A stretch of DNA of 64,000 nucleotides from Nitrospirota bacterium (GTDB taxonomy: Bacteria > Nitrospirota > Nitrospiria > Nitrospirales > Nitrospiraceae): assembly GCA_963701855.1 (NCBI GenBank), contig CAVPBK010000006.1, forward strand, positions 1,120,001 through 1,184,000. The letters are read 5' to 3'. The notes below the pieces were generated by a model. That model was not told where the DNA came from. It made no database searches and saw only the letters and a program-made list of their open reading frames with translations. Below are positions 1 to 9,521 of this stretch, in pieces. Positions within the stretch are counted from its first letter, which is position 1. Each line of letters begins with the position of its first letter. Made by a program: the position numbers and the translations under genes.

Positions 1-262
1 CCAGATCTTGGAGTCGAATGCGTCCCGACTTGAGATAGGCGCGATACTGATGGCTGGGCAGGTAGCCGTTGCCTCCCAAGAACTGCTTGCCGCGCCGGAC
101 GGTCTCTTCGAATGGAAGGTATTCAAGGCTATGGAGCGGGTTATGGTGCACGAAAGTCCGCATCGGCCAATACTGCGCGACCACTTCGCCTGCGAGATGG
201 ACAATACCTCGCAGCTCCATTCGCCTCGTTTCGATGTCGGGTCGGTTCTCTACTTGTTCCAT
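1..262 (-). CDS. dabA: DUF2309 / DabA (MpsB) inorganic carbon transporter subunit, N-terminal part (runs off window)
   Basis: Hand translation from ATG at 262: MEQVENRPDIETRRMELRGIVHLAGEVVAQYWPMRTFVHHNPLHSLEYLPF. WP..FVHHNPL is the DUF2309 N-terminal motif; lies downstream of NuoL/M-like genes. Not in the ORF track. Confidence 0.88.
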   Translation of the reverse strand, partial: MEQVENRPDIETRRMELRGIVHLAGEVVAQYWPMRTFVHHNPLHSLEYLPFEETVRRGKQFLGGNGYLPSHQYRAYLKSGRIRLQDL

Positions 263-1557
263 ACGAACAATTCCGTGATGGCGCCGGCTGCCGTCGTGAG
301 CGTGCCCGTTTCAAACAGATGGGTCGGGACCACGCCCAAAGCCAGCAACACCACAACGAGGATCGTGAGCGAAGCCAATTCGCCAGGAAGCAGATCTGTG
401 TAGCGCAAATCACAGCGGCGCGCTCCGAAGAGCCACTGCTGCGCCATGCCCATGATGTACCATGAAGCGGCAAGCCAGGCCGTCACGATGATGACGATCG
501 CGATGGAGAAGGAAACCTCGGACAACAGAAGCAGGCCCATGAAACCGGCAAAGAGGCCGAACGGCGGCAGGCCTGTCGCAGCCAAGGCCAAAAGCGAGAG
601 AAGAACGGCGTAGCGCGGCATAGTCGCCGCCAACCCACTGATGGATTGCGGGTCCACGTCGTCTCCATAGCGCGTTCGGATGACCTGCCAAGCGAGCAGC
701 AGTCCGCTGGTGGTGAACCCGACTGCCCCGACGAAGACCGCAGCGCGTGGTGTCGTGGCATTGGTCGAGGCACCAAACCACCACAGCATCGAGTAGAACG
801 ACAGGCTGCTGTACGACAAGAGGAGTCGTGCGCGCGATTGCGCCAGCGCCTTAACCGCACCGTAGAACGTGCCTGCCAGGGCAAACAGGCTTACAGTCCA
901 GGCCGCCGCGTCAGGGACTGTCGGCATGACCGATGTTGCGCCGTGCAGTCCGATCACGGGGAAGAGCAACACGATGAACGAAGGTAGGCTGCCGGGGAGC
1001 CGCGTAAGCGCAGTGATATGTCCCTGGTGAAACGGCATAAGCGGCAACAAAACTGCGCAGGTCAACAAGGACGCGACGGAAGAGAGCGGCGGGGCAGCCA
1101 CGAGAGAAATCGTGACGCACCCAACGGCGAGTGCATAGGCGCCGATCCCCAACCAGGAAATTGGCCACAATGGCGTATGGTGGCGGTAGAGCAACGCGAT
1201 GAGTGAACTGAGCAGCACAAGCAAGCACACCTGCCCCATGACGTTTTGGCTCGTCAGGATGACGAATCCCAGTCCGAGAAACAGCAAGGTCGTGATCCAC
1301 GACAGCCGCAGATTCTTGTGACCCGGCTGTCCCAGGAGAGATGCACAGGCGGCAACCGGCAGGAGATAAACCAGCAACAGATTTTCAGGTGAGGTCGTGA
1401 GGGATTCAGACATTCCGGCAGCCGCGACGAGGCTCAGGATCGACAGGACGACCGACCAGTTCCTGAGATAGTCCGGTCGCGACCAGACTGCGAAGCCCAA
1501 CGCTGCTCCCAGAAGAGGAATACCTGCCAGAAGCAATGAAGCGACGGCACCATCCAT
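250..1557 (-). CDS. Degenerate NuoM/MrpD-like proton-antiporter-family membrane subunit of the DAB locus
   Basis: Very hydrophobic; PLMPFH, ISGLAATMPR and GLPPFGLFAGF motifs. Start taken at ATG 1557, overlapping the upstream TGA (TGATG). Confidence 0.8.
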   Translation of the reverse strand: MDGAVASLLLAGIPLLGAALGFAVWSRPDYLRNWSVVLSILSLVAAAGMSESLTTSPENLLLVYLLPVAACASLLGQPGHKNLRLSWITTLLFLGLGFVILTSQNVMGQVCLLVLLSSLIALLYRHHTPLWPISWLGIGAYALAVGCVTISLVAAPPLSSVASLLTCAVLLPLMPFHQGHITALTRLPGSLPSFIVLLFPVIGLHGATSVMPTVPDAAAWTVSLFALAGTFYGAVKALAQSRARLLLSYSSLSFYSMLWWFGASTNATTPRAAVFVGAVGFTTSGLLLAWQVIRTRYGDDVDPQSISGLAATMPRYAVLLSLLALAATGLPPFGLFAGFMGLLLLSEVSFSIAIVIIVTAWLAASWYIMGMAQQWLFGARRCDLRYTDLLPGELASLTILVVVLLALGVVPTHLFETGTLTTAAGAITELFVWNK

Positions 1558-3257
1558 CACCGCGACCATCCTCGTACGCTTTTGTCGAATCGGACCAGGA
1601 GTCGCCCGGCTACCCCGCCCAGTTTTTGATAGACCTCGTCCGCATAAAGCCGGTTCATGAACAGGACGTACAAGCGAATCCTCACCCCCTCGACCCACGA
1701 CGGCATCCAGACAGTACGCCCATGGGCCCGCATGTAGAGATAGAACCATCCGGCGATCGTCGTCAGCGTCGCCATGATGATCATCAGGTCGAAGAACCAA
1801 TTCGGGAGTTCGGCCGCCTTGAAGTAGGACGCAACTTCATGCGGGTCCGGGTAGAGGAACGCCGTAAAAGATTCCACGGCGAATAGATATACAAACACAA
1901 TGAACAGCAGGGTCAGCAGCATCACGGACGACACTTTCCACGAGGCCACGGCCCTTAATCGTGTAAGTGTCATGATGGCCTGTGAGGAGGTGATCCAGAT
2001 GAAGAACAGAAAGATCACCGTGCCCTGCGACTCAAGCAGTGGAATATGCAACACGCCGTGCGTGACGAGGAGAATCAGCAGGGGAATGAAGAGTGTCGTC
2101 ACGAAACCGGTCGACCAGGTGAGACGGGAGAAGCCCTCTTCCTCCTCCTGATGGTCATGGTGAGGGAAATGAGGTTCCTGCCGGGCCTTATGGATGACGT
2201 TGCCACAGTTCAAAAACACGGTCGCCTTGAACAGTCCGTGCGCGATCAGATGGAAGACTGCGAGAGAAAATGCGCCCAATCCACATTCCATGATCATGTA
2301 ACCCATCTGACCTATTGTGGAGAAACCGAGCGTTTTCTTGATGTCGTTTTGCGCCAGCATCATGCTGGCACCGAGAACAGCTGTCAGGGTGCCGACAGCG
2401 AAGGCTACGTGGAGGGTTGTCGAGCTCAATCCGAAGAGCGGCGCCAACCGGTTGATCAGAAACCCGCCGGCATTGATGATGCCGGCATGGAGCAACGCGT
2501 GCACCGGTGTGGGGGCATAGAGCGAGCGGGGCAGCCAGACGTGGATCGGAAACTGCGCCGACTTGCTCATTCCTCCGATGAACAGCAGCAGCGTGACGGC
2601 TGTGGTTCCGTTGAGTTCCCATCCAGGCAGAGGCGAGAGCGTGACCGGCGTCTCAGCCGCCTTGACGAACAATGGCTGGAACTCCAATGTGCCATAGAGT
2701 GAATGGGCCAGGACGATACCGGAAAGAAACGCCACATCGCCGACGCGCAAAAGCGTAAACGTTCGAAAGGCGCCTTCCAGCGTCGCTGCATGCGCATGAT
2801 TGTGGGCCAGGATATAGAGCAGGTAACTCAGGAGCTGCCAAAAGATGAACAGCATCATGAGATTGCCGCTTGAGACCATGCAAAGCAGTACGAAGGTCGT
2901 AAATCCGATCAGCGAAAGGTACCGGGTTTCATGCGGATCCTGGTACAGGTATCCGACGGAATAAGTGTAGATGATGGTTCCGACGCCGGAGATTAACACC
3001 ATCATGATCGCACTCAGCCGATCGATGTAAAAACCAATGGGAAAAGCCAGCGTCGCAGGGGATGAGGGGTCGTAGAACCGAATGGTGATGGCCCCGTGTG
3101 TCGCCACATACCAGAGGGTCACGATGGCTCCCAGCAAAGCTGCGCCGATGGGATAGGCCGCGATCCTGGCGCGTCGGTGTCGGGAGTTCTCATCGCCGAC
3201 CAGCACGATGAGCCCCGCGAGGAGCGGGAGGAATGGAACTAGGATGACGGAGAACAC
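1557..3257 (-). CDS. dabB: NuoL-like DabB/MpsA subunit of inorganic carbon transporter
   Basis: IDRLS, KSAQFPIHVWLP, PTPVHALLHAG, DIKKTLGFST, HLIAHGLFKATVFL motifs; GTG start at 3257 with GAGG upstream. Confidence 0.88.
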   Translation of the reverse strand: MFSVILVPFLPLLAGLIVLVGDENSRHRRARIAAYPIGAALLGAIVTLWYVATHGAITIRFYDPSSPATLAFPIGFYIDRLSAIMMVLISGVGTIIYTYSVGYLYQDPHETRYLSLIGFTTFVLLCMVSSGNLMMLFIFWQLLSYLLYILAHNHAHAATLEGAFRTFTLLRVGDVAFLSGIVLAHSLYGTLEFQPLFVKAAETPVTLSPLPGWELNGTTAVTLLLFIGGMSKSAQFPIHVWLPRSLYAPTPVHALLHAGIINAGGFLINRLAPLFGLSSTTLHVAFAVGTLTAVLGASMMLAQNDIKKTLGFSTIGQMGYMIMECGLGAFSLAVFHLIAHGLFKATVFLNCGNVIHKARQEPHFPHHDHQEEEEGFSRLTWSTGFVTTLFIPLLILLVTHGVLHIPLLESQGTVIFLFFIWITSSQAIMTLTRLRAVASWKVSSVMLLTLLFIVFVYLFAVESFTAFLYPDPHEVASYFKAAELPNWFFDLMIIMATLTTIAGWFYLYMRAHGRTVWMPSWVEGVRIRLYVLFMNRLYADEVYQKLGGVAGRLLVRFDKSVRGWSR

Positions 3258-3288
3258 TGGTACCTCATGATGATCGACGCAGGAACCC

Positions 3289-3350
3289 AAGAAAACAGAA
3301 AAGCCAACCGGGGATTCCCCGACGACTGATCGAGGCAATCCGGTTGGCTT
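3289..3350 (-). terminator. Intrinsic terminator in the dab leader
   Basis: AAGCCAACCGG...CCGGTTGGCTT perfect 11-bp stem followed by TTCTGTTTTCTT, about 30 nt before the dabB start. Confidence 0.8.
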
Positions 3351-3465
3351 GTACTGCAACCGGCCTCTCTCCTGAATTGCCGGTCGCCCTACGGCCGCTG
3401 ACAGTCGAAGCCGGTGTTTCGCCTGTTTCCGAGGAGTCTCGAGACAGGAGACATCGCCGTACTGT
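3289..3465 (-). ncRNA. Candidate structured 5' leader (riboswitch or attenuator) of the dab operon
   Basis: Three stem-loop domains; the last is an intrinsic terminator, and an alternative antiterminator pairing exists (see findings). Confidence 0.6.
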
Positions 3466-3482
3466 GAAGTCCAGCTCAATCA

Positions 3483-3509
3483 ATAATACTGTCCATAGAC
3501 ATTCGTCAA
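3483..3509 (-). promoter_or_regulatory. Possible sigma70 promoter of the dab leader
   Basis: TTGACG-N15-TATTAT; spacer is shorter than ideal. Confidence 0.35.
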
Positions 3510-3689
3510 GCGTCTGCTACGAAATTGGTGTCCCCGATCGTTGGGCGAAGGCCTAAAAGTCCCAGGCGGCGAACCGGTTTGGATAAAAGCCCTACGTTTC
3601 CACTTGTTCAGGCGGGCACCCCCCCTTATAATCTGCTGCCGAGTCGGCTACCACAATCGAATTCCCTCATCATTCGGACAAAGTACCGC

Positions 3690-4034
3690 GTGGAAAACGC
3701 CATTCGCAATATCATCATCAAGTTCGAGCAAGAATTCATGGGTCGCGGACCCGATGAAGTGCGCGCGTTTGTCGTGCGGGATCTGGTCGTTGTCCGGCTG
3801 AAAGGGGTGCTTACGCTCGCAGAGCGCCAATTAGCCAAAACGACAGAAGGCGTCGACATGGTGAAGCGGTTACGGCAAAACTTGATCGCACTGGGTCGCG
3901 ACAAACTCTGCGATCAAGTGAGCGACATCACGGGCGCCAAAACCCTGGCCCTTTTTACCGACATTGACGTACAGATCGGCGAACGGGTTTTCGTGTTCAC
4001 ACTCGATCGCGACATTCAGGGTGGAAGCCGATAG
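3690..4034 (+). CDS. DUF2294 (MpsC/YbcI-like) protein
   Basis: KFEQEFMGRGP..VVVRLKGVLT.AE..LA and TDID...GERVFVFTL motifs; start uncertain (GTG 3690 or slightly upstream). Confidence 0.85.
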   Translation: MENAIRNIIIKFEQEFMGRGPDEVRAFVVRDLVVVRLKGVLTLAERQLAKTTEGVDMVKRLRQNLIALGRDKLCDQVSDITGAKTLALFTDIDVQIGERVFVFTLDRDIQGGSR

Positions 4035-4048
4035 CGCAAATACGCACA

Positions 4049-4640
4049 ATGGGACAACTCGCCACAGGCCTCCTCAAGTTTCGATTCGAGATGTTCGGCA
4101 AGAAACAAGAGCTCTTCACCAGGCCTTCAGAACTCCTTGATCCCTTTTCATTACCTGTTTCGATTCACGAGTCGACCCGACTCTCCTGACCCAAGCCGAT
4201 CCCGTGGAGCTCTGTATTCTCAGGAACGTCGGCAATATGGTGGCTGTGTGGCTCGATGCAAGGGGGCGGCACAGCGACCATCGAGTACGCCATTGGCCGT
4301 TCTGAAGGTTCCACCCAGTATTGTCTGCGGACATGAGGCTTGCAGTGTGATGAGAGCGCTCGTGCACCGAAGGATGTGCAGGACCCACCGGCCCTCAGGA
4401 AGTGGGTCGGGCAAGCAGAAGCCTGCCCGGCGCTTGATCAAAGCTTCGCGGGAAAACATGCGATCACAGATCGACCAGCTTCGCACCCCCCCGTCCGTCG
4501 CCGTGCGTCTACGTCCGCGAAACGTGTCTCTCCATGGGTGGGTGTATTCCATTTCGACCGGCGACGTGTGGGTCTATGACTTCGACTCCGAGCGATTCAC
4601 CTCTCTGCTGGACGAGGCTTTTCCTAGCTTGAAAGCATAG
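4049..4640 (+). pseudogene. Beta-class carbonic anhydrase, multiply frameshifted
   Basis: Segments in different frames: FITCFDSRVDPTLLTQ..LRNVGNMV / ATIEYA / VLKV..IVCGHEAC / ENMRSQIDQLRT..LHGWVYSISTG. Confidence 0.85.
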
Positions 4641-4670
4641 TGTTTGTCCTGGCAAGCTGTACCCACGACC

Positions 4671-6140
4671 ATGCGCCCACTGGAAACTCTCTCTTTCGAT
4701 AACTCCTATGCCCGTTTGCCCCAGACTTTCTACGCCAAGTTGAACCCCACGCCGTTTGACGTGCCTCCGTATCTCGTCAGTTTCAATCCCGCAGCAGCCG
4801 AACTGATCGACCTTGATCCGGCGCAAGCGAAGCGACCGGAGTTTGCCGGGGTGTTTGGTGGGAGTCTTCTAGTCCCGGGGATGGAGCCGTTGGCGATGCT
4901 CTACTCGGGCCATCAATTTGGGGTCTACGTTCCGCAATTGGGAGACGGTCGCGCAATTCTCCTTGGCGAAATACGGAACGAACGGGGCGAGAAGTGGGAT
5001 CTGCATCTGAAGGGGGCGGGACTTACACCGTTCTCGCGAGAGGGAGACGGCCGCGCGGTTCTGCGTTCGACCATCCGGGAGTATCTCTGCTGCGAAGCGA
5101 TGCATGGGCTGGGCATTCCGACGACGAGGGCACTCTGCATCGTCGGCAGCGATCACAAGGTCTATCGCGAACAGGTCGAGACCGGCGCGATCGTACTTCG
5201 CATGGCGCCCTCTCACGTGCGGTTCGGCTCGTTCGAAATTCTCTATTATCGGAAACAACATGAACAGCTCAAAGTGCTGGCCGACTTCGTGATTGCGCAT
5301 CACTATCCTCATCTCGTGGAAGCAGCAGACAAATATGCGCACTTCTTTCATGAGGTCGTCGAGCGTACCGCGAAGCTGATTTCCCAATGGCAGGCCGTCG
5401 GTTGGGCGCACGGAGTGATGAACACCGACAACATGTCGATCCTGGGGATCACACTTGACTACGGCCCGTTCGGCTTTATCGACGACTACGATCCAGGACT
5501 TGTCTGCAACCACTCCGACCACAACGGCCGTTATGCCTTCAATCAACAGCCCTATATCGGTCTCTGGAATCTCAGCTGTCTGGCGCAGGCGTTGCTCCCG
5601 TTGGCCCAGAAAGAAGATTTGAAGGCCGCACTAGACCGCTACACCCCCCTCTGCGAAGAAGGGTACATGGAGTTGATGCGGGCTAAGCTCGGACTCATCG
5701 AGACGAAGGAGGAAGATGCGTCGATGATCCAAGACCTCTTGGCGCTCATGCACCTACAGCATGTCGATTACACTAGCTTCTTTCGAGCCCTGGGACTGTT
5801 TCAAGCCGGAACTGAATCGCTGAATGAGCTGATCCGCGACTTCTTCCTGGATCGTGAATCGTTCGACCAGTGGGCTCGCCGGTACAAGGATCGGTTGCGC
5901 CAAGAGGGGAGTCGAGACGAGGACCGGTTGGTCCGTATGAACCGCGTCAATCCCAAGTACGTGCTCCGCAACTATCTGGCGCAGACCGCCATCGAGAAGG
6001 CTCAGAAGAAGGACTTCTCCGAGATCGATCGGTTGCTCTCTCTGCTGCAAAATCCCTACAGCGACCAGTCAGGCATGGATGCCTACGCAGCCCCGCCACC
6101 TAACTGGGGCAAACACTTGTCCGTTAGTTGTAGCTCCTAG
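4671..6140 (+). CDS. selO: Protein adenylyltransferase SelO (YdiU)
   Basis: YSGHQFG, QLGDGRA, KGAGLTPFSREGDGRAVLRS, HGVMNTDN, NPKYVLRNY, C-terminal CSS. Confidence 0.95.
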   Translation: MRPLETLSFDNSYARLPQTFYAKLNPTPFDVPPYLVSFNPAAAELIDLDPAQAKRPEFAGVFGGSLLVPGMEPLAMLYSGHQFGVYVPQLGDGRAILLGEIRNERGEKWDLHLKGAGLTPFSREGDGRAVLRSTIREYLCCEAMHGLGIPTTRALCIVGSDHKVYREQVETGAIVLRMAPSHVRFGSFEILYYRKQHEQLKVLADFVIAHHYPHLVEAADKYAHFFHEVVERTAKLISQWQAVGWAHGVMNTDNMSILGITLDYGPFGFIDDYDPGLVCNHSDHNGRYAFNQQPYIGLWNLSCLAQALLPLAQKEDLKAALDRYTPLCEEGYMELMRAKLGLIETKEEDASMIQDLLALMHLQHVDYTSFFRALGLFQAGTESLNELIRDFFLDRESFDQWARRYKDRLRQEGSRDEDRLVRMNRVNPKYVLRNYLAQTAIEKAQKKDFSEIDRLLSLLQNPYSDQSGMDAYAAPPPNWGKHLSVSCSS

Positions 6141-6248: not shown

Positions 6249-9200
6249 ATGGCAAAAGGAAGTGGAGAATCGAAGCTCGCCCTAGTGGGGGTGGTCACCC
6301 TCGCAGTTGCGCTTGCCGGCGTGCTGTTGGTGAAAGAGCCTCTACGCAGTTCGCGGCCGGTAGGGACCGGGTTGGATATAAACCAGACCACCGGTGAGGA
6401 GTCGGTCCGCGCGCGGCTATGGGAAGATCCGGTGGCTGCGGTGCAGCGGGGCCTGAGAGGAACTCGGCCACCACCAGCCGGGTCATCCAAGCCCGGCCAG
6501 TCGGGTGAGTCATCTCTCTCGCAGCGTCTGAGGCCACTGCGGCAGGCGATTGCCGATCGAGTCGAGAAGGGCGAGCGGATTACAGTCCTATTGGTGACCC
6601 TGAGCGGCGATCCCTATGCAGAGAGTACGGAGTCCCGCATTCGAGATCGTTATGCGGTCGGCACCGCACTGGGGGTGGCCTGCTATGTTCCGGAAGACGA
6701 AGGACATCTCTCGTTCGTCGAGGGGGACGCTCAGGCGGTCGGTCATGCGTTGCCGTACGAGTGGTATCGGATCCGCAAGACACGAATATGCGGCGAGGAA
6801 CGGGGTCGAATCCAGAGCACGCTCGTGGTCTGGATTCCCGACGACGCCCTGAGTCAAGGGTACTTGGCGACCCTGACCTCCTTGTCGCAGGCCATGGTGT
6901 GTCAGGAGTCGAAACAGAAGAACGAATGCATACTGACCGAGGACAAACGCAGGCTGGTTCGATTGAATCCTGCAGTTCAACAAGCCGTCACGTTCAAGCT
7001 GGTGGGGCCCCGCAGTTCTTCCGCCCTGCGTGATCTCCTGGAAGAGGCTGGAAGCTTGTATGGAGAGCCCCATGAAGGGGTCGGCGTCTGGCCGAATACG
7101 GACGGGACCATCGAACTGTATTCACCATGGGCCAGCGCGATGAAAGGGCTTATGGCCTATGGACTGAAGAAGGAAGGGGGGAAAGGCCCGGCCTGCCAGA
7201 CCTATGAAGCCTGCGAGCAGGAGTTTTTTCATCGGCTGGCGGCCGCGAATATACGGCTTGTCTATGAGATCGGATCTGACGACCGGCTCTTCGACACGCT
7301 GATCGAGGAATTAGAACGTCGCCAGGTACGGCTCGGTTGGGATGCGGTGATCCTCATCGGGGAGTGGGATTCGTTGTATGGTCGAGCGCTGCCCATTGAG
7401 TTCCGTGCGGCAGCTTGTGCGAAAGTGGCGACCTTCACGGAGGCAGAGCTGAAGCAGATCCAGGTGCCGACGACGATCAAAGCCTGGTGTCCGACAGTCC
7501 CGCGTGCAATCGATCTGCAGGTTCAGCGCACGGCGGACTATGAGTCCCTGACCTTGAACGTCTTCCGCTATAGCTATCTGAGCGGTCTCGACGGCGAAGT
7601 GCCGGGCGACGACAGCGTGAAAGCCGCACGTGTAGAGAAACCCAAAACCAGTGAGACGGCGAAGGATGCACTGGCCGGTGGTCTAAAGGAACGGCCCGAA
7701 GGCACCAGTCAGCTTGATTATGTGCGCGCCTTGGCCACGCGGATTCAAGACGAAGGAGAAGGCGCGAAAGCGATCGGTATCCTGGGCTCGGACCCTTACG
7801 ACGCATTGCTCATTCTGAAAGCACTACGGCCGGCATTTCCTTACGCCGTCTTCTTCACCGTCGACCTCGATGCACGCCACCTTCAGGCGAGCGAATATCA
7901 ATGGACCAGGAATATGGTCATCGCCTCGCCATTCGGCTTGCAGCTGGATGGTGGTTTGCAACGCGATGTCCCGCCGTTCAGGAGCAGTGATCAAACGGCC
8001 ACTTATTTTGCCGTACTCCGGGCGGTGAATTACGTTACCTGTCGCGCAGTGGGCGATCGACAAAACCCGGCAGCCCTCTGTCCAGGGGGATATCACGTTG
8101 CGATGACCCCGGATGACCGAATCTACGATGCGGCTGAACATCCTCGGATCTTCGAAGTAGGGCGAGAGGGTGCCGTGGACTTAAGTGTCGTGGATATCGA
8201 AGGTGTGAGAACGATCCATCCCTTACGGGCGGACCTCGACCATACGGACAATCTGGGACAGTTGAAGCAGGGCATCGGTCCCGGCAGCGCAACCGTGACG
8301 GCGTTGGTCGCGATCGGGCTGTTCGTCGGGACGGTGCTCGCCTGGACCAATCAGCGACTCTGGCTCCGGGTCTCGCGCTCCTGGCGTCTGCTTGCCGTGA
8401 CTGGCTTCCTTCTTCTGGCCGGGACATCGGTCTTTTGGGTCATGGGTGGCGGGACAGCCCTCATGGCCCACCACGATGAAGGCGAACCTTTTTCGTGGAC
8501 CGCGGGCGTGAGCATTTGGCCCGGTGAGGGGCTCCGGCTTCTCGCGGGGATCTTGTGCGTCGTCTTCCTGGTCAAAGGATTGCGGGATCTCGTCAAGAAC
8601 AGCGACGATCTCACCGATGCCTTCCAGTTCCGTATCGATCAAGGCCAACGCTCCCGATTCACCTTGAAGACATTCTGGACGAATCTGCAGCGGGTCTATC
8701 ATTCGGCTGCCACCAGAACGGCCACCACGGTCGATCAAGCCTGGGCCTGGTACCTCGATGCAGCAGACCCGTTGCAGCGGACGGCGCGCGTTCTGGTCCT
8801 ATTCCTGCTCTATGGCGCTGTCATGATTTCCCTCGGTCACTGGGTCGTTGACGAAGAGATGATCCATCCCTGTCGAGGGTGGCTGAGCTGTCGAGTGGAC
8901 GAGATCATGACGCTGGTCAGCGTGAGCCTCGTCGTGTTGCTGAACCTGGCGGTGTTCGATGAGGTCATGTTGTGCCGTAGGTGGGTCGGTTGGGTGAACA
9001 GCTCGAGTGGGGGGTGGTCGGAACAGGTGCAGCAGGAATACTTGCGTGAGTATGGGTTGAGCCAGAGCCACAAGACCGAGTTCGAAAAACTCAAGTACTT
9101 AGCCGGGATCGATCTGATCAGCCGGCGGACGGAAGCGGTTAATCGCCTCATCCGGTACCCCTTCATCACCTTGCTGATCATGATCGCCGCGCGCAACGAC

Positions 9201-9521
9201 TACTTCGATATTTGGAATTACCCACTCCTCCTTCTGCTATCCTGGGCCGTGAATGTCGTTCTGGCACTGAGTGGAGCGTTATTGCTCTATCAAGCTGCCG
9301 ATCGGGCGAAACAAGCGGTCTTGGCGGGACTGAGCAAGCAAATGATCCAAGCCCTTGGGCTCGGCAAGGACCACGAAATCCGTGCGAAACAGGTCCAGTA
9401 CATCATCGGCGAGGTTGAGGCCAACCAGAAGGGCGCGTTCGTTCCCTTCTACCAGCAACCCGTCGTTGAATCGTCGCTCTACGGCGTCGTCGCATTGCTG
9501 CAATATCTGTATATGAGATAA
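6249..9521 (+). CDS. Large membrane protein of unknown function (N-terminal anchor, about 650-aa extracytoplasmic domain, about 7 C-terminal TM helices)
   Basis: 1090-aa ORF; hydrophobic segments read by eye. Confidence 0.8.
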   Translation: MAKGSGESKLALVGVVTLAVALAGVLLVKEPLRSSRPVGTGLDINQTTGEESVRARLWEDPVAAVQRGLRGTRPPPAGSSKPGQSGESSLSQRLRPLRQAIADRVEKGERITVLLVTLSGDPYAESTESRIRDRYAVGTALGVACYVPEDEGHLSFVEGDAQAVGHALPYEWYRIRKTRICGEERGRIQSTLVVWIPDDALSQGYLATLTSLSQAMVCQESKQKNECILTEDKRRLVRLNPAVQQAVTFKLVGPRSSSALRDLLEEAGSLYGEPHEGVGVWPNTDGTIELYSPWASAMKGLMAYGLKKEGGKGPACQTYEACEQEFFHRLAAANIRLVYEIGSDDRLFDTLIEELERRQVRLGWDAVILIGEWDSLYGRALPIEFRAAACAKVATFTEAELKQIQVPTTIKAWCPTVPRAIDLQVQRTADYESLTLNVFRYSYLSGLDGEVPGDDSVKAARVEKPKTSETAKDALAGGLKERPEGTSQLDYVRALATRIQDEGEGAKAIGILGSDPYDALLILKALRPAFPYAVFFTVDLDARHLQASEYQWTRNMVIASPFGLQLDGGLQRDVPPFRSSDQTATYFAVLRAVNYVTCRAVGDRQNPAALCPGGYHVAMTPDDRIYDAAEHPRIFEVGREGAVDLSVVDIEGVRTIHPLRADLDHTDNLGQLKQGIGPGSATVTALVAIGLFVGTVLAWTNQRLWLRVSRSWRLLAVTGFLLLAGTSVFWVMGGGTALMAHHDEGEPFSWTAGVSIWPGEGLRLLAGILCVVFLVKGLRDLVKNSDDLTDAFQFRIDQGQRSRFTLKTFWTNLQRVYHSAATRTATTVDQAWAWYLDAADPLQRTARVLVLFLLYGAVMISLGHWVVDEEMIHPCRGWLSCRVDEIMTLVSVSLVVLLNLAVFDEVMLCRRWVGWVNSSSGGWSEQVQQEYLREYGLSQSHKTEFEKLKYLAGIDLISRRTEAVNRLIRYPFITLLIMIAARNDYFDIWNYPLLLLLSWAVNVVLALSGALLLYQAADRAKQAVLAGLSKQMIQALGLGKDHEIRAKQVQYIIGEVEANQKGAFVPFYQQPVVESSLYGVVALLQYLYMR

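Follow-up and report, generated by a model that had tools for sequence, protein, structure and literature searches.

We analyzed a stretch of 64,000 nt from a Nitrospirota bacterium (contig CAVPBK010000006.1, positions 1,120,001 to 1,184,000), hereafter the window, and in particular its coordinates 3289-4034, which comprise a leader RNA, intergenic promoters and a gene of the DUF2294 (MpsC) family, and thus more than the gene alone. The DUF2294 gene (plus strand) and dabB (minus strand) lie head to head, with 433 nt between their start codons. Gene dabB (1557-3257, minus strand; GTG start at 3257) is the first after the leader and codes for a NuoL/MpsA-type membrane subunit (Proton_antipo_M, E 6.2e-46; Proton_antipo_N, E 2.5e-13); it is followed by a second, diverged antiporter-like membrane gene (250-1569, minus strand; Proton_antipo_M, E 2.1e-09; start inferred from the frame) and by the 5′ end of dabA (DUF2309; 1-262, minus strand; PF10070, E 4.5e-17 on the part within the window), which continues beyond the window and codes in the genome for a full product of 1076 amino acids (aa) (PF10070, E 2.5e-266). 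On the other side, DUF2294 is followed by a beta-carbonic anhydrase pseudogene, frameshifted over three frames (4050-4640, plus strand; Pro_CA, E 8.7e-11 on one piece), and by selO (4644-6140, plus strand; SelO, E 5.2e-149). A preliminary description of this DNA had placed DUF2294 head to head with an attenuated dab operon and upstream of a carbonic anhydrase remnant, and the Pfam matches, the terminator and the reading of the three frames agree with this layout.

The open reading frame (ORF) at 3525-4034 (plus strand) matches PF10057 (MpsC) with an E-value of 8.2e-32 and 110 bits (cut-off 23), over positions 1-111 of the 111 in the profile; the match begins at residue 52 of the ORF, and a search of the genome gives the same result. 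Because relatives have an ATG at the aligned place, and because many database entries are 114 aa long, with 83-95% identity to the product from the window, the alignment indicates that the gene most likely starts at the GTG in 3690. The resulting coding sequence (3690-4034, plus strand; 114 aa plus stop) is supported by the PF10057 match, the start alignment and an AlphaFold2 (AF2) model. It contains all the residues characteristic of the family (the GRG loop, LTxAE, an Asp in strand 3 and a Glu in strand 4); across an alignment of 61 sequences (A1), D91 is invariant and E2, G18, G20, D31, L41, E45, L48, G54, K59, R62 and E98 are conserved in at least 90%. Source names in the databases place the organism among Nitrospira. 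Profile searches found a single DUF2294 gene and a single dabA in the genome, and both PF10057 and PF10070 also match the Bacillus subtilis control genome.

Upstream of DUF2294, a probable sigma-70-type promoter can be read from the sequence (3604-3632, plus strand), consisting of TTGTTC (3604-3609), a 17-nt spacer and TATAAT (3627-3632), although it was not listed by the program's promoter scan. CTTGT and TATAAT are invariant in nine of nine aligned relatives, within variable flanks, and DUF2294 probably has a promoter of its own that lies outside the attenuated transcript. On the opposite strand, and about 95 nt away, lies the probable dab promoter (3481-3509, minus strand), likewise read from the sequence. 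It comprises TTGACG (3509-3504) and, within 3488-3481, a -10 box rich in A/T; the closest relatives retain this promoter (alignment A3).

Compared with shuffled sequences, the dab 5′ region (3480 to 3258, minus strand) has a more stable fold (z -3.1). Its minimum-energy fold includes an intrinsic terminator (3292-3350, minus strand), also found by a terminator scan, with a stem at 3350-3301 and a U tract to 3292. The terminator is preceded by a first hairpin (P1; 3410-3457, minus strand), seen in single-sequence folds of this and related leaders and not called in the RNAalifold consensus, and by a rod hairpin (3346-3396, minus strand) made of three helical segments with conserved internal loops between them. 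The rod is supported by a consensus structure with compensatory changes and forms part of the match to our leader model, R1, with which the leader from the window scores 96.3 bits over 3289-3400. In 19 aligned 5′ regions, from the same genus and three other genera of the order, the conserved rod is followed directly by the terminator, with compensatory changes at 10 of the 20 pairs of both structures; the terminator is kept in all 22 divergent dab leaders that yielded a best hairpin. A search of Rfam 15 with coordinates 2900-4800 returned only three weak, unrelated matches at E ≤ 10, and in eight loci with leaders only tRNAs reached the gathering score.

The rod and the terminator overlap: the outer GGC:GCC helix of the rod is formed in part by the bases with which the 5′ arm of the terminator begins, and in 13 of the 19 leaders, from a reading of the folds by eye, this helix forms once the 3′ arm of the terminator is omitted. 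Since the minimum-energy fold of the full-length leader contains the terminator, an antiterminator would have to be stabilized to win, and the predicted overlap is the geometry of an antiterminator of this type. We also considered a simpler antiterminator, formed by the 3′ arm of the rod and the 5′ arm of the terminator, which works by eye in the sequence from the window; we discarded it because it is not conserved in relatives, the feature that they share being the outer helix of the rod.

The preliminary description had proposed phylogenetic coupling of leader and DUF2294 as a check on a regulatory role, and this coupling was found. Among 61 Nitrospirales genomes (that of the window and 60 relatives), searched with R1 as the leader model, PF10057 is present in 37, dabA in 46 and R1 in 37. 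Both DUF2294 and R1 occur in 33 genomes and neither of them in 20, while four have DUF2294 and no R1 (G012, G025, G033 and G058, the gene from the last being broken by stops) and another four have R1 and no DUF2294 (G018, G043, G060 and G020, where the leader lies at the start of a contig and is uninformative on the absence of the gene). The association is also positional, in that 30 of the 48 forward R1 matches sit 170-365 nt from a divergent DUF2294 match, with dabB or dabA as the first gene behind the leader. Genome G005 (C553, 3407-7444) contains two DUF2294 genes, each beside its own leader. Tandem DUF2294 paralogs occur in several Nitrospira genomes (G005, and also G017, G021, G025 and G029).

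In one genus with small complete genomes, extra copies of R1 precede SulP-family permeases, possibly BicA-like bicarbonate transporters, and Mrp-like antiporter operons, some of these copies being clustered with DUF2294 and the leader of dabA. This genus also has a second dab type, consisting of dabB, a 437-aa gene and a dabA coding for 1081 aa, with a LysR-type regulator nearby (8068-14284 in L119, from G060; 9491-15710 in L122, from G037; and L120, from G043). In the three loci of this type that were read (L119, L120 and L122), there is no above-threshold R1 match before dabB and no adjacent DUF2294; matches to R1 elsewhere in L122 are only sub-threshold (14-15 bits). Therefore, DUF2294 tracks the leader and not dab as such. 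As side observations on these genomes, the same leader precedes three operon types within one cluster, namely dabA, a SulP permease and an Mrp-like operon (MnhE, MbhD/E, Proton_antipo_M), in loci L113 (G052), L114 (G056), L115 (G054), L116-L118 (G049) and L124 (G046), and in G060 and G037 a weak leader match is followed by a fragment of dabA containing an in-frame TGA.

Using an alignment of nine DUF2294 sequences (A2) against species genomes, we examined the best 80 of 596 confirmed stretches, a set that is biased to relatives of one sequence type and comes mostly from Planctomycetota, Verrucomicrobiota, Lentisphaerota, Hydrogenedentota and Desulfobacterota. None of these 80 loci contains dabA within the flanks (up to 10 kb), which rules out a general link of DUF2294 with Dab. 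Over the 80 loci (1.1 Mb), R1, the Nitrospirales model, gave 24 matches at E ≤ 1, of which 14 lie at most 600 nt downstream of DUF2294 and on the same strand, with scores in these phyla of 13-36 bits. A second model (R2), rebuilt from 19 matches in other phyla, gave 53 matches at E ≤ 0.1, with 33 of them within 600 nt downstream of DUF2294, an interval amounting to about 2% of the searched space. These 33 matches correspond to 29 loci, 16 of which were outside the training set; one further match is upstream of the gene and divergent. The aligned matches share the rod, the closing GU(A/G)...(U/C)AC pairs and the run into the terminator arm.

The genes behind these leaders vary, although several of them belong to a few recurrent families. 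In a Pfam scan of 167 neighboring proteins of at least 150 aa (positions -1, +1 and +2 of the 80 loci), 27 neighbors from 24 loci corresponded to phosphoenolpyruvate carboxykinase (PEPCK), PurE/PurK, beta-carbonic anhydrase, carbamoyl-phosphate synthase, Sua5, HMGL-like or hexapeptide proteins, compared with 8 of 120 ORFs (of 142) in a set taken 4-7 kb away, three of which are themselves behind further leader matches; the list of families related to CO2 or bicarbonate was chosen after the first results were seen, and the contrast is thus indicative only. DUF4914 occurs in six more loci, in five of them behind DUF2294 and the leader and in L105 upstream of DUF2294; separately, DUF4914 is weakly similar to GTP-type PEPCK (blastp, E 6e-5). 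Additionally, a conserved family of about 590-650 aa is found directly behind DUF2294 and the leader in 10 loci from several phyla, often followed by chorismate synthase (L058:5922-7697, L067:3312-5081, L091:4737-6506, L103:10684-12462, L107:10665-12434, L074, L087, L106, L062 and L049); this family has no Pfam match and resembles ATP-type PEP carboxykinase only faintly (NCBIfam, E 7.5e-4). In Planctomycetota loci L039, L042 and L084, a second, divergent MpsC paralog lies behind the leader and so inside the regulated transcript.

The AF2 model of DUF2294, from 61 aligned sequences, has a mean predicted local distance difference test score (pLDDT) of 96.5 and shows a helix, two strands, a short helix, a long helix and two strands. 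A homodimer prediction gave a score of 0.47, compared with 0.00 for the best control, with three runs agreeing in 100% of the contacts and a pLDDT for the partner of at least 86; this mark is reached by 20 of 30 solved homodimers and by one of 23 solved monomers, counts that are only rough because our own alignment was used. From this model, DUF2294 is probably a dimer. The predicted interface is the face of the sheet and includes the invariant D91, E98 (conserved in at least 90%) and residues 29-30 and 32, which flank the conserved D31; such a composition could accommodate a metal or ligand. K59 and R62, both basic and conserved, are on the long helix. In Pfam (E ≤ 0.01) the protein matched MpsC only, with no HutP, CAT, PRD or helix-turn-helix domain. 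Among solved structures, a sequence search with DUF2294 gave nothing below E 0.067, and a look-up in the ESM Atlas excluding PF10057 produced no usable match. The best Foldseek result (E 4e-3, template modeling score of 0.4-0.5) was to TPC6/Bet3, and the best from VIA (Z 7.3, root-mean-square deviation (rmsd) 2.9, 90 aligned residues) was to a collagenase subdomain, that is, to unrelated proteins. A recurring likeness to TRAPP/Bet3, YslB, H-NOX and V4R proteins is too weak to build on, since its VIA Z values (4.5-6.1) are within the noise stated for the tool and not above those of unrelated rows; this applies also to 2c0j_B (Z 6.1, rmsd 3.8, 92 aligned residues). Structure prediction had been suggested earlier as a way of revealing an RNA-binding surface; in the fold searches, no known RNA-binding fold stood out.

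In all these comparisons the constant pair is DUF2294 plus a leader with a rod and a terminator, the regulated genes vary, and DUF2294 stays outside the regulated transcript, either divergent, as in Nitrospirales, or directly upstream, as in the other phyla. Because of these three properties, the pattern is that of a regulator with its RNA site. With moderate confidence, we propose that DUF2294 acts in trans on the leader RNA as its protein partner, in a manner similar to HutP, stabilizing the rod against the terminator upon a signal related to inorganic carbon. According to this proposal, DUF2294 would be expressed independently of the regulated transcript, by its own promoter, and would probably be dimeric. 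By default, the dab leader would form the rod and the strong terminator, and transcription would stop before dabB. Active DUF2294 would bind the conserved internal loops of the rod and stabilize its outer helix, which would then sequester the start of the 5′ arm of the terminator; the terminator would fail and RNA polymerase would continue into dabB, the second antiporter-like gene (dabB2) and dabA, following the same logic as HutP or LicT. That binding switches the genes on, and not off, is suggested by the overlap of the rod with the terminator. A link of the signal to inorganic carbon (CO2 or bicarbonate) is probable, given that the leaders precede carbon-uptake genes in this organism and, in other phyla, genes for enzymes handling CO2 or bicarbonate; this content of the regulon is all that suggests the nature of the signal. 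A more specific version, which we consider tentative and less likely than not, is that DUF2294 is a CO2- or bicarbonate-sensing RNA-binding dimer, with the acidic cluster at its interface, which would open the leaders of uptake genes (Dab, SulP, Mrp-like) and of carboxylating or decarboxylating genes (PEPCK, PurEK, carbamoyl-phosphate synthase, carbonic anhydrase) in several phyla.

Several observations weigh against the proposal that DUF2294 acts on the leader. Genomes G018, G043 and G060 (99% complete, two of them in a single contig) have R1 leaders before SulP or dab genes and no DUF2294, even with the family profile at E ≤ 1; their best R1 scores (42-55 bits) are like those of the SulP leaders from carriers of DUF2294 (50-61 bits), so that the leader can persist without the gene. 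Conversely, there are the four genomes with DUF2294 and no R1 match, and the related genomes that we compared are non-independent samples. In other phyla, only 30 of the 80 loci have a leader match beside DUF2294. Among 101 Verrucomicrobiota genomes, DUF2294 is present in two, and the sole strong R2 match is in a genome used for training, with the other carrier showing a match of 21 bits located 141 nt past the gene; seven genomes of this phylum lacking DUF2294 also give R2 matches of around 30 bits. R2 thus separates poorly at low scores, and the test of presence and absence in Verrucomicrobiota is uninformative. Regarding the protein, fold searches in three modes yielded no clear relative and no prominent known RNA-binding fold, and the core of the family is mostly acidic (median isoelectric point of 5.8, with 38 of 61 sequences below 6; 7.9 in the copy from the window). 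Finally, deletion of mpsC in Staphylococcus aureus causes no growth defect at ambient CO2, according to the available part of the report (PMC6689103), from which it follows that expression of mpsAB in that organism is independent of MpsC.

Some of these observations could be accommodated if the leader were a stand-alone riboswitch whose ligand, an ion or small molecule, is connected with inorganic carbon or with the balance of sodium or pH, and DUF2294 were not its effector but a functionally related neighbor, for instance a cytosolic sensor or modulator acting post-translationally on carbon-handling enzymes or transporters. We regard this as a serious alternative, if less probable than a protein partner; it rests mainly on the three genomes that retain normally scoring leaders without DUF2294 and on the missing RNA-binding signature in a protein whose family core is acidic and whose fold is not one known to bind RNA. 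The regulon (dab, SulP, Mrp-like, PEPCK, PurEK and carbonic anhydrase genes) would suit a single shared chemical signal, and some ion riboswitches, too, typically have a rod-like hairpin competing with a terminator. Nevertheless, the RNA is a rod of simple form in which few bases are conserved and whose sequence drifts strongly between phyla, as reflected in the low R1 scores outside Nitrospirales, and this fits a coevolving protein site better than a universal ligand pocket; moreover, its constant partner is DUF2294 while the targets vary, and the gene keeps a fixed place outside the regulated transcript, as such regulators do.

The divergent arrangement in the window, with the two promoters so close to each other, is typical of transcription factors that share a control region with their target, and DUF2294 might then act at the promoter by binding DNA, the leader being controlled independently. 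We consider this improbable, since no DNA-binding domain, helix-turn-helix or otherwise, is apparent in Pfam or in the model, the core of the family is acidic, and the other phyla have a co-directional gene followed by the leader, with no divergent promoter. Least probable of all is a role for DUF2294 in the Dab/Mps carbon pump, as an accessory subunit or assembly factor. In favor of it are its position adjoining the dab genes in Nitrospirales and the name MpsC, derived from the mpsABC cluster of S. aureus as given in the accessible part of PMC6689103; against it are the lack of dabA around DUF2294 in the other phyla and its divergent transcription in the window. The preliminary description had favored a regulator, such as an RNA-binding antiterminator, over a transporter subunit. 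The choice of a regulator is sustained by the coupling to the leader, by the promoter of its own and by the dispensability of mpsC for MpsAB function and transport in S. aureus (PMC6689103, from the portion available), while the predicted RNA-binding role lacks support from the fold.

The system closest to our proposal is HutP and the hut terminator of B. subtilis, which likewise consists of a small alpha/beta protein beside a leader with a terminator; in the other phyla DUF2294 is, like hutP, directly upstream of the leader. The signal-loaded RNA binding by which HutP prevents termination is what would be expected of DUF2294, which is also predicted to be an oligomer from the dimer model. However, DUF2294 has no sequence match to HutP, which was not among the fold matches listed; its leader is a rod with internal loops and does not contain spaced triplet repeats, and the gene in the window is divergent from the leader. 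BglG, LicT and SacY act on a ribonucleic antiterminator (RAT) hairpin that, like the rod of the dab leader, competes with the terminator for bases of its 5′ arm, and whose stabilization therefore prevents termination, but DUF2294 lacks CAT or PRD domains and its context contains no sugar-transport genes. The Na+ (DUF1646 motif) and Li+ (nhaA-I) riboswitches similarly oppose a hairpin with conserved internal loops to a terminator, before ion or transport genes (here, the Mrp-like operon); unlike them, the dab leader has no Rfam match at or near threshold and is accompanied by a conserved protein gene.

CcmR/CbbR-type regulators exemplify LysR-type control of carbon-concentrating genes. LysR proteins differ from DUF2294 in that they bind DNA at promoters, whereas DUF2294 lacks a domain of this kind and is associated with an RNA element. 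In the part of the DAB preprint available (10.1101/476713), LysR genes with a high-CO2-requiring (HCR) phenotype from Halothiobacillus adjoin and regulate genes for inorganic-carbon uptake, and a LysR gene is also beside the leaderless dab type described above. There, DabAB is presented as a carbon pump, LysR regulators and Nitrospirae receive only passing mention, and regulation by RNA does not appear. Additionally, S. aureus MpsC belongs to the same Pfam family as DUF2294 and is encoded beside MpsA and MpsB, homologs of DabB and DabA, but mpsC is downstream of mpsAB, behind a weak terminator; expression of mpsA is lower at 5% CO2 (available part of PMC6689103). Among the matches listed in our literature searches there was nothing relevant on DUF2294, PF10057 or YbcI, or on a riboswitch linked to these genes, and we did not find the pairing of DUF2294 with the leader in print.

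How non-photosynthetic bacteria sense CO2 or bicarbonate is poorly understood, and the question concerns both Nitrospira, key CO2-fixing nitrite oxidizers, and pathogens, in which Dab-type pumps also matter. If DUF2294 is indeed the partner of the leader, an orphan family of about 1,100 clusters (at 50% identity) would gain a function, the few RNA-binding attenuation factors would be joined by one with a new fold, and a regulon of carbon uptake and carboxylation would become readable from sequence; were the CO2- or bicarbonate-sensing version also true, this would be the first transcription attenuation system responding to inorganic carbon. The system is small, with an RNA of about 110 nt and a protein of 114 aa, and is thus directly testable in vitro.

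Regarding the genes flanking the DUF2294-dab pair, selO is the conserved downstream neighbor of DUF2294 in the genus, or of the carbonic anhydrase gene where present. In 19 related loci, the interval between DUF2294 and selO contains an intact frame of 212-220 aa in eight, short remnants in three and nothing in seven, with the carbonic anhydrase frames being recognized by eye from their likeness to the remnant in the window and not by Pfam. In Nitrospira, the ancestral arrangement appears to have had the leader, dabB, dabB2 and dabA to one side and DUF2294, followed by beta-carbonic anhydrase and selO, to the other. The second antiporter-like gene of the operon (250-1569), whose match to Proton_antipo_M is of only 37 bits, is kept in the three-gene dab type, from the loci that were read (that of the genome analyzed here, L119, L122 and L123), and has no counterpart in two-gene DabAB systems. 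Downstream of selO, an ORF of 1090 aa (6249-9521, plus strand) has several predicted membrane stretches and no Pfam family at E ≤ 0.01.

Contigs from four soil metatranscriptome runs of one study match parts of dabB, the leader and DUF2294 with 90-99% identity; they come without strand, ends or level, and with possible carry-over of DNA, and therefore do not demonstrate expression or attenuation. These contigs leave coordinates 4091-4587 uncovered, and one of them, from a relative, passes from 4045 to 4638 by way of 15 other letters, indicating that the carbonic anhydrase remnant is missing in that relative. Another contig (run X4; 331 letters, mean word depth of 14) covers 3292-3624, that is, the terminator, the presumed dab promoter and almost as far as the -10 box of DUF2294. 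If this contig is RNA, and DNA carry-over is possible, either transcription on the dab side would start further upstream than assumed, or there would be antisense or read-through transcription across the intergenic region.

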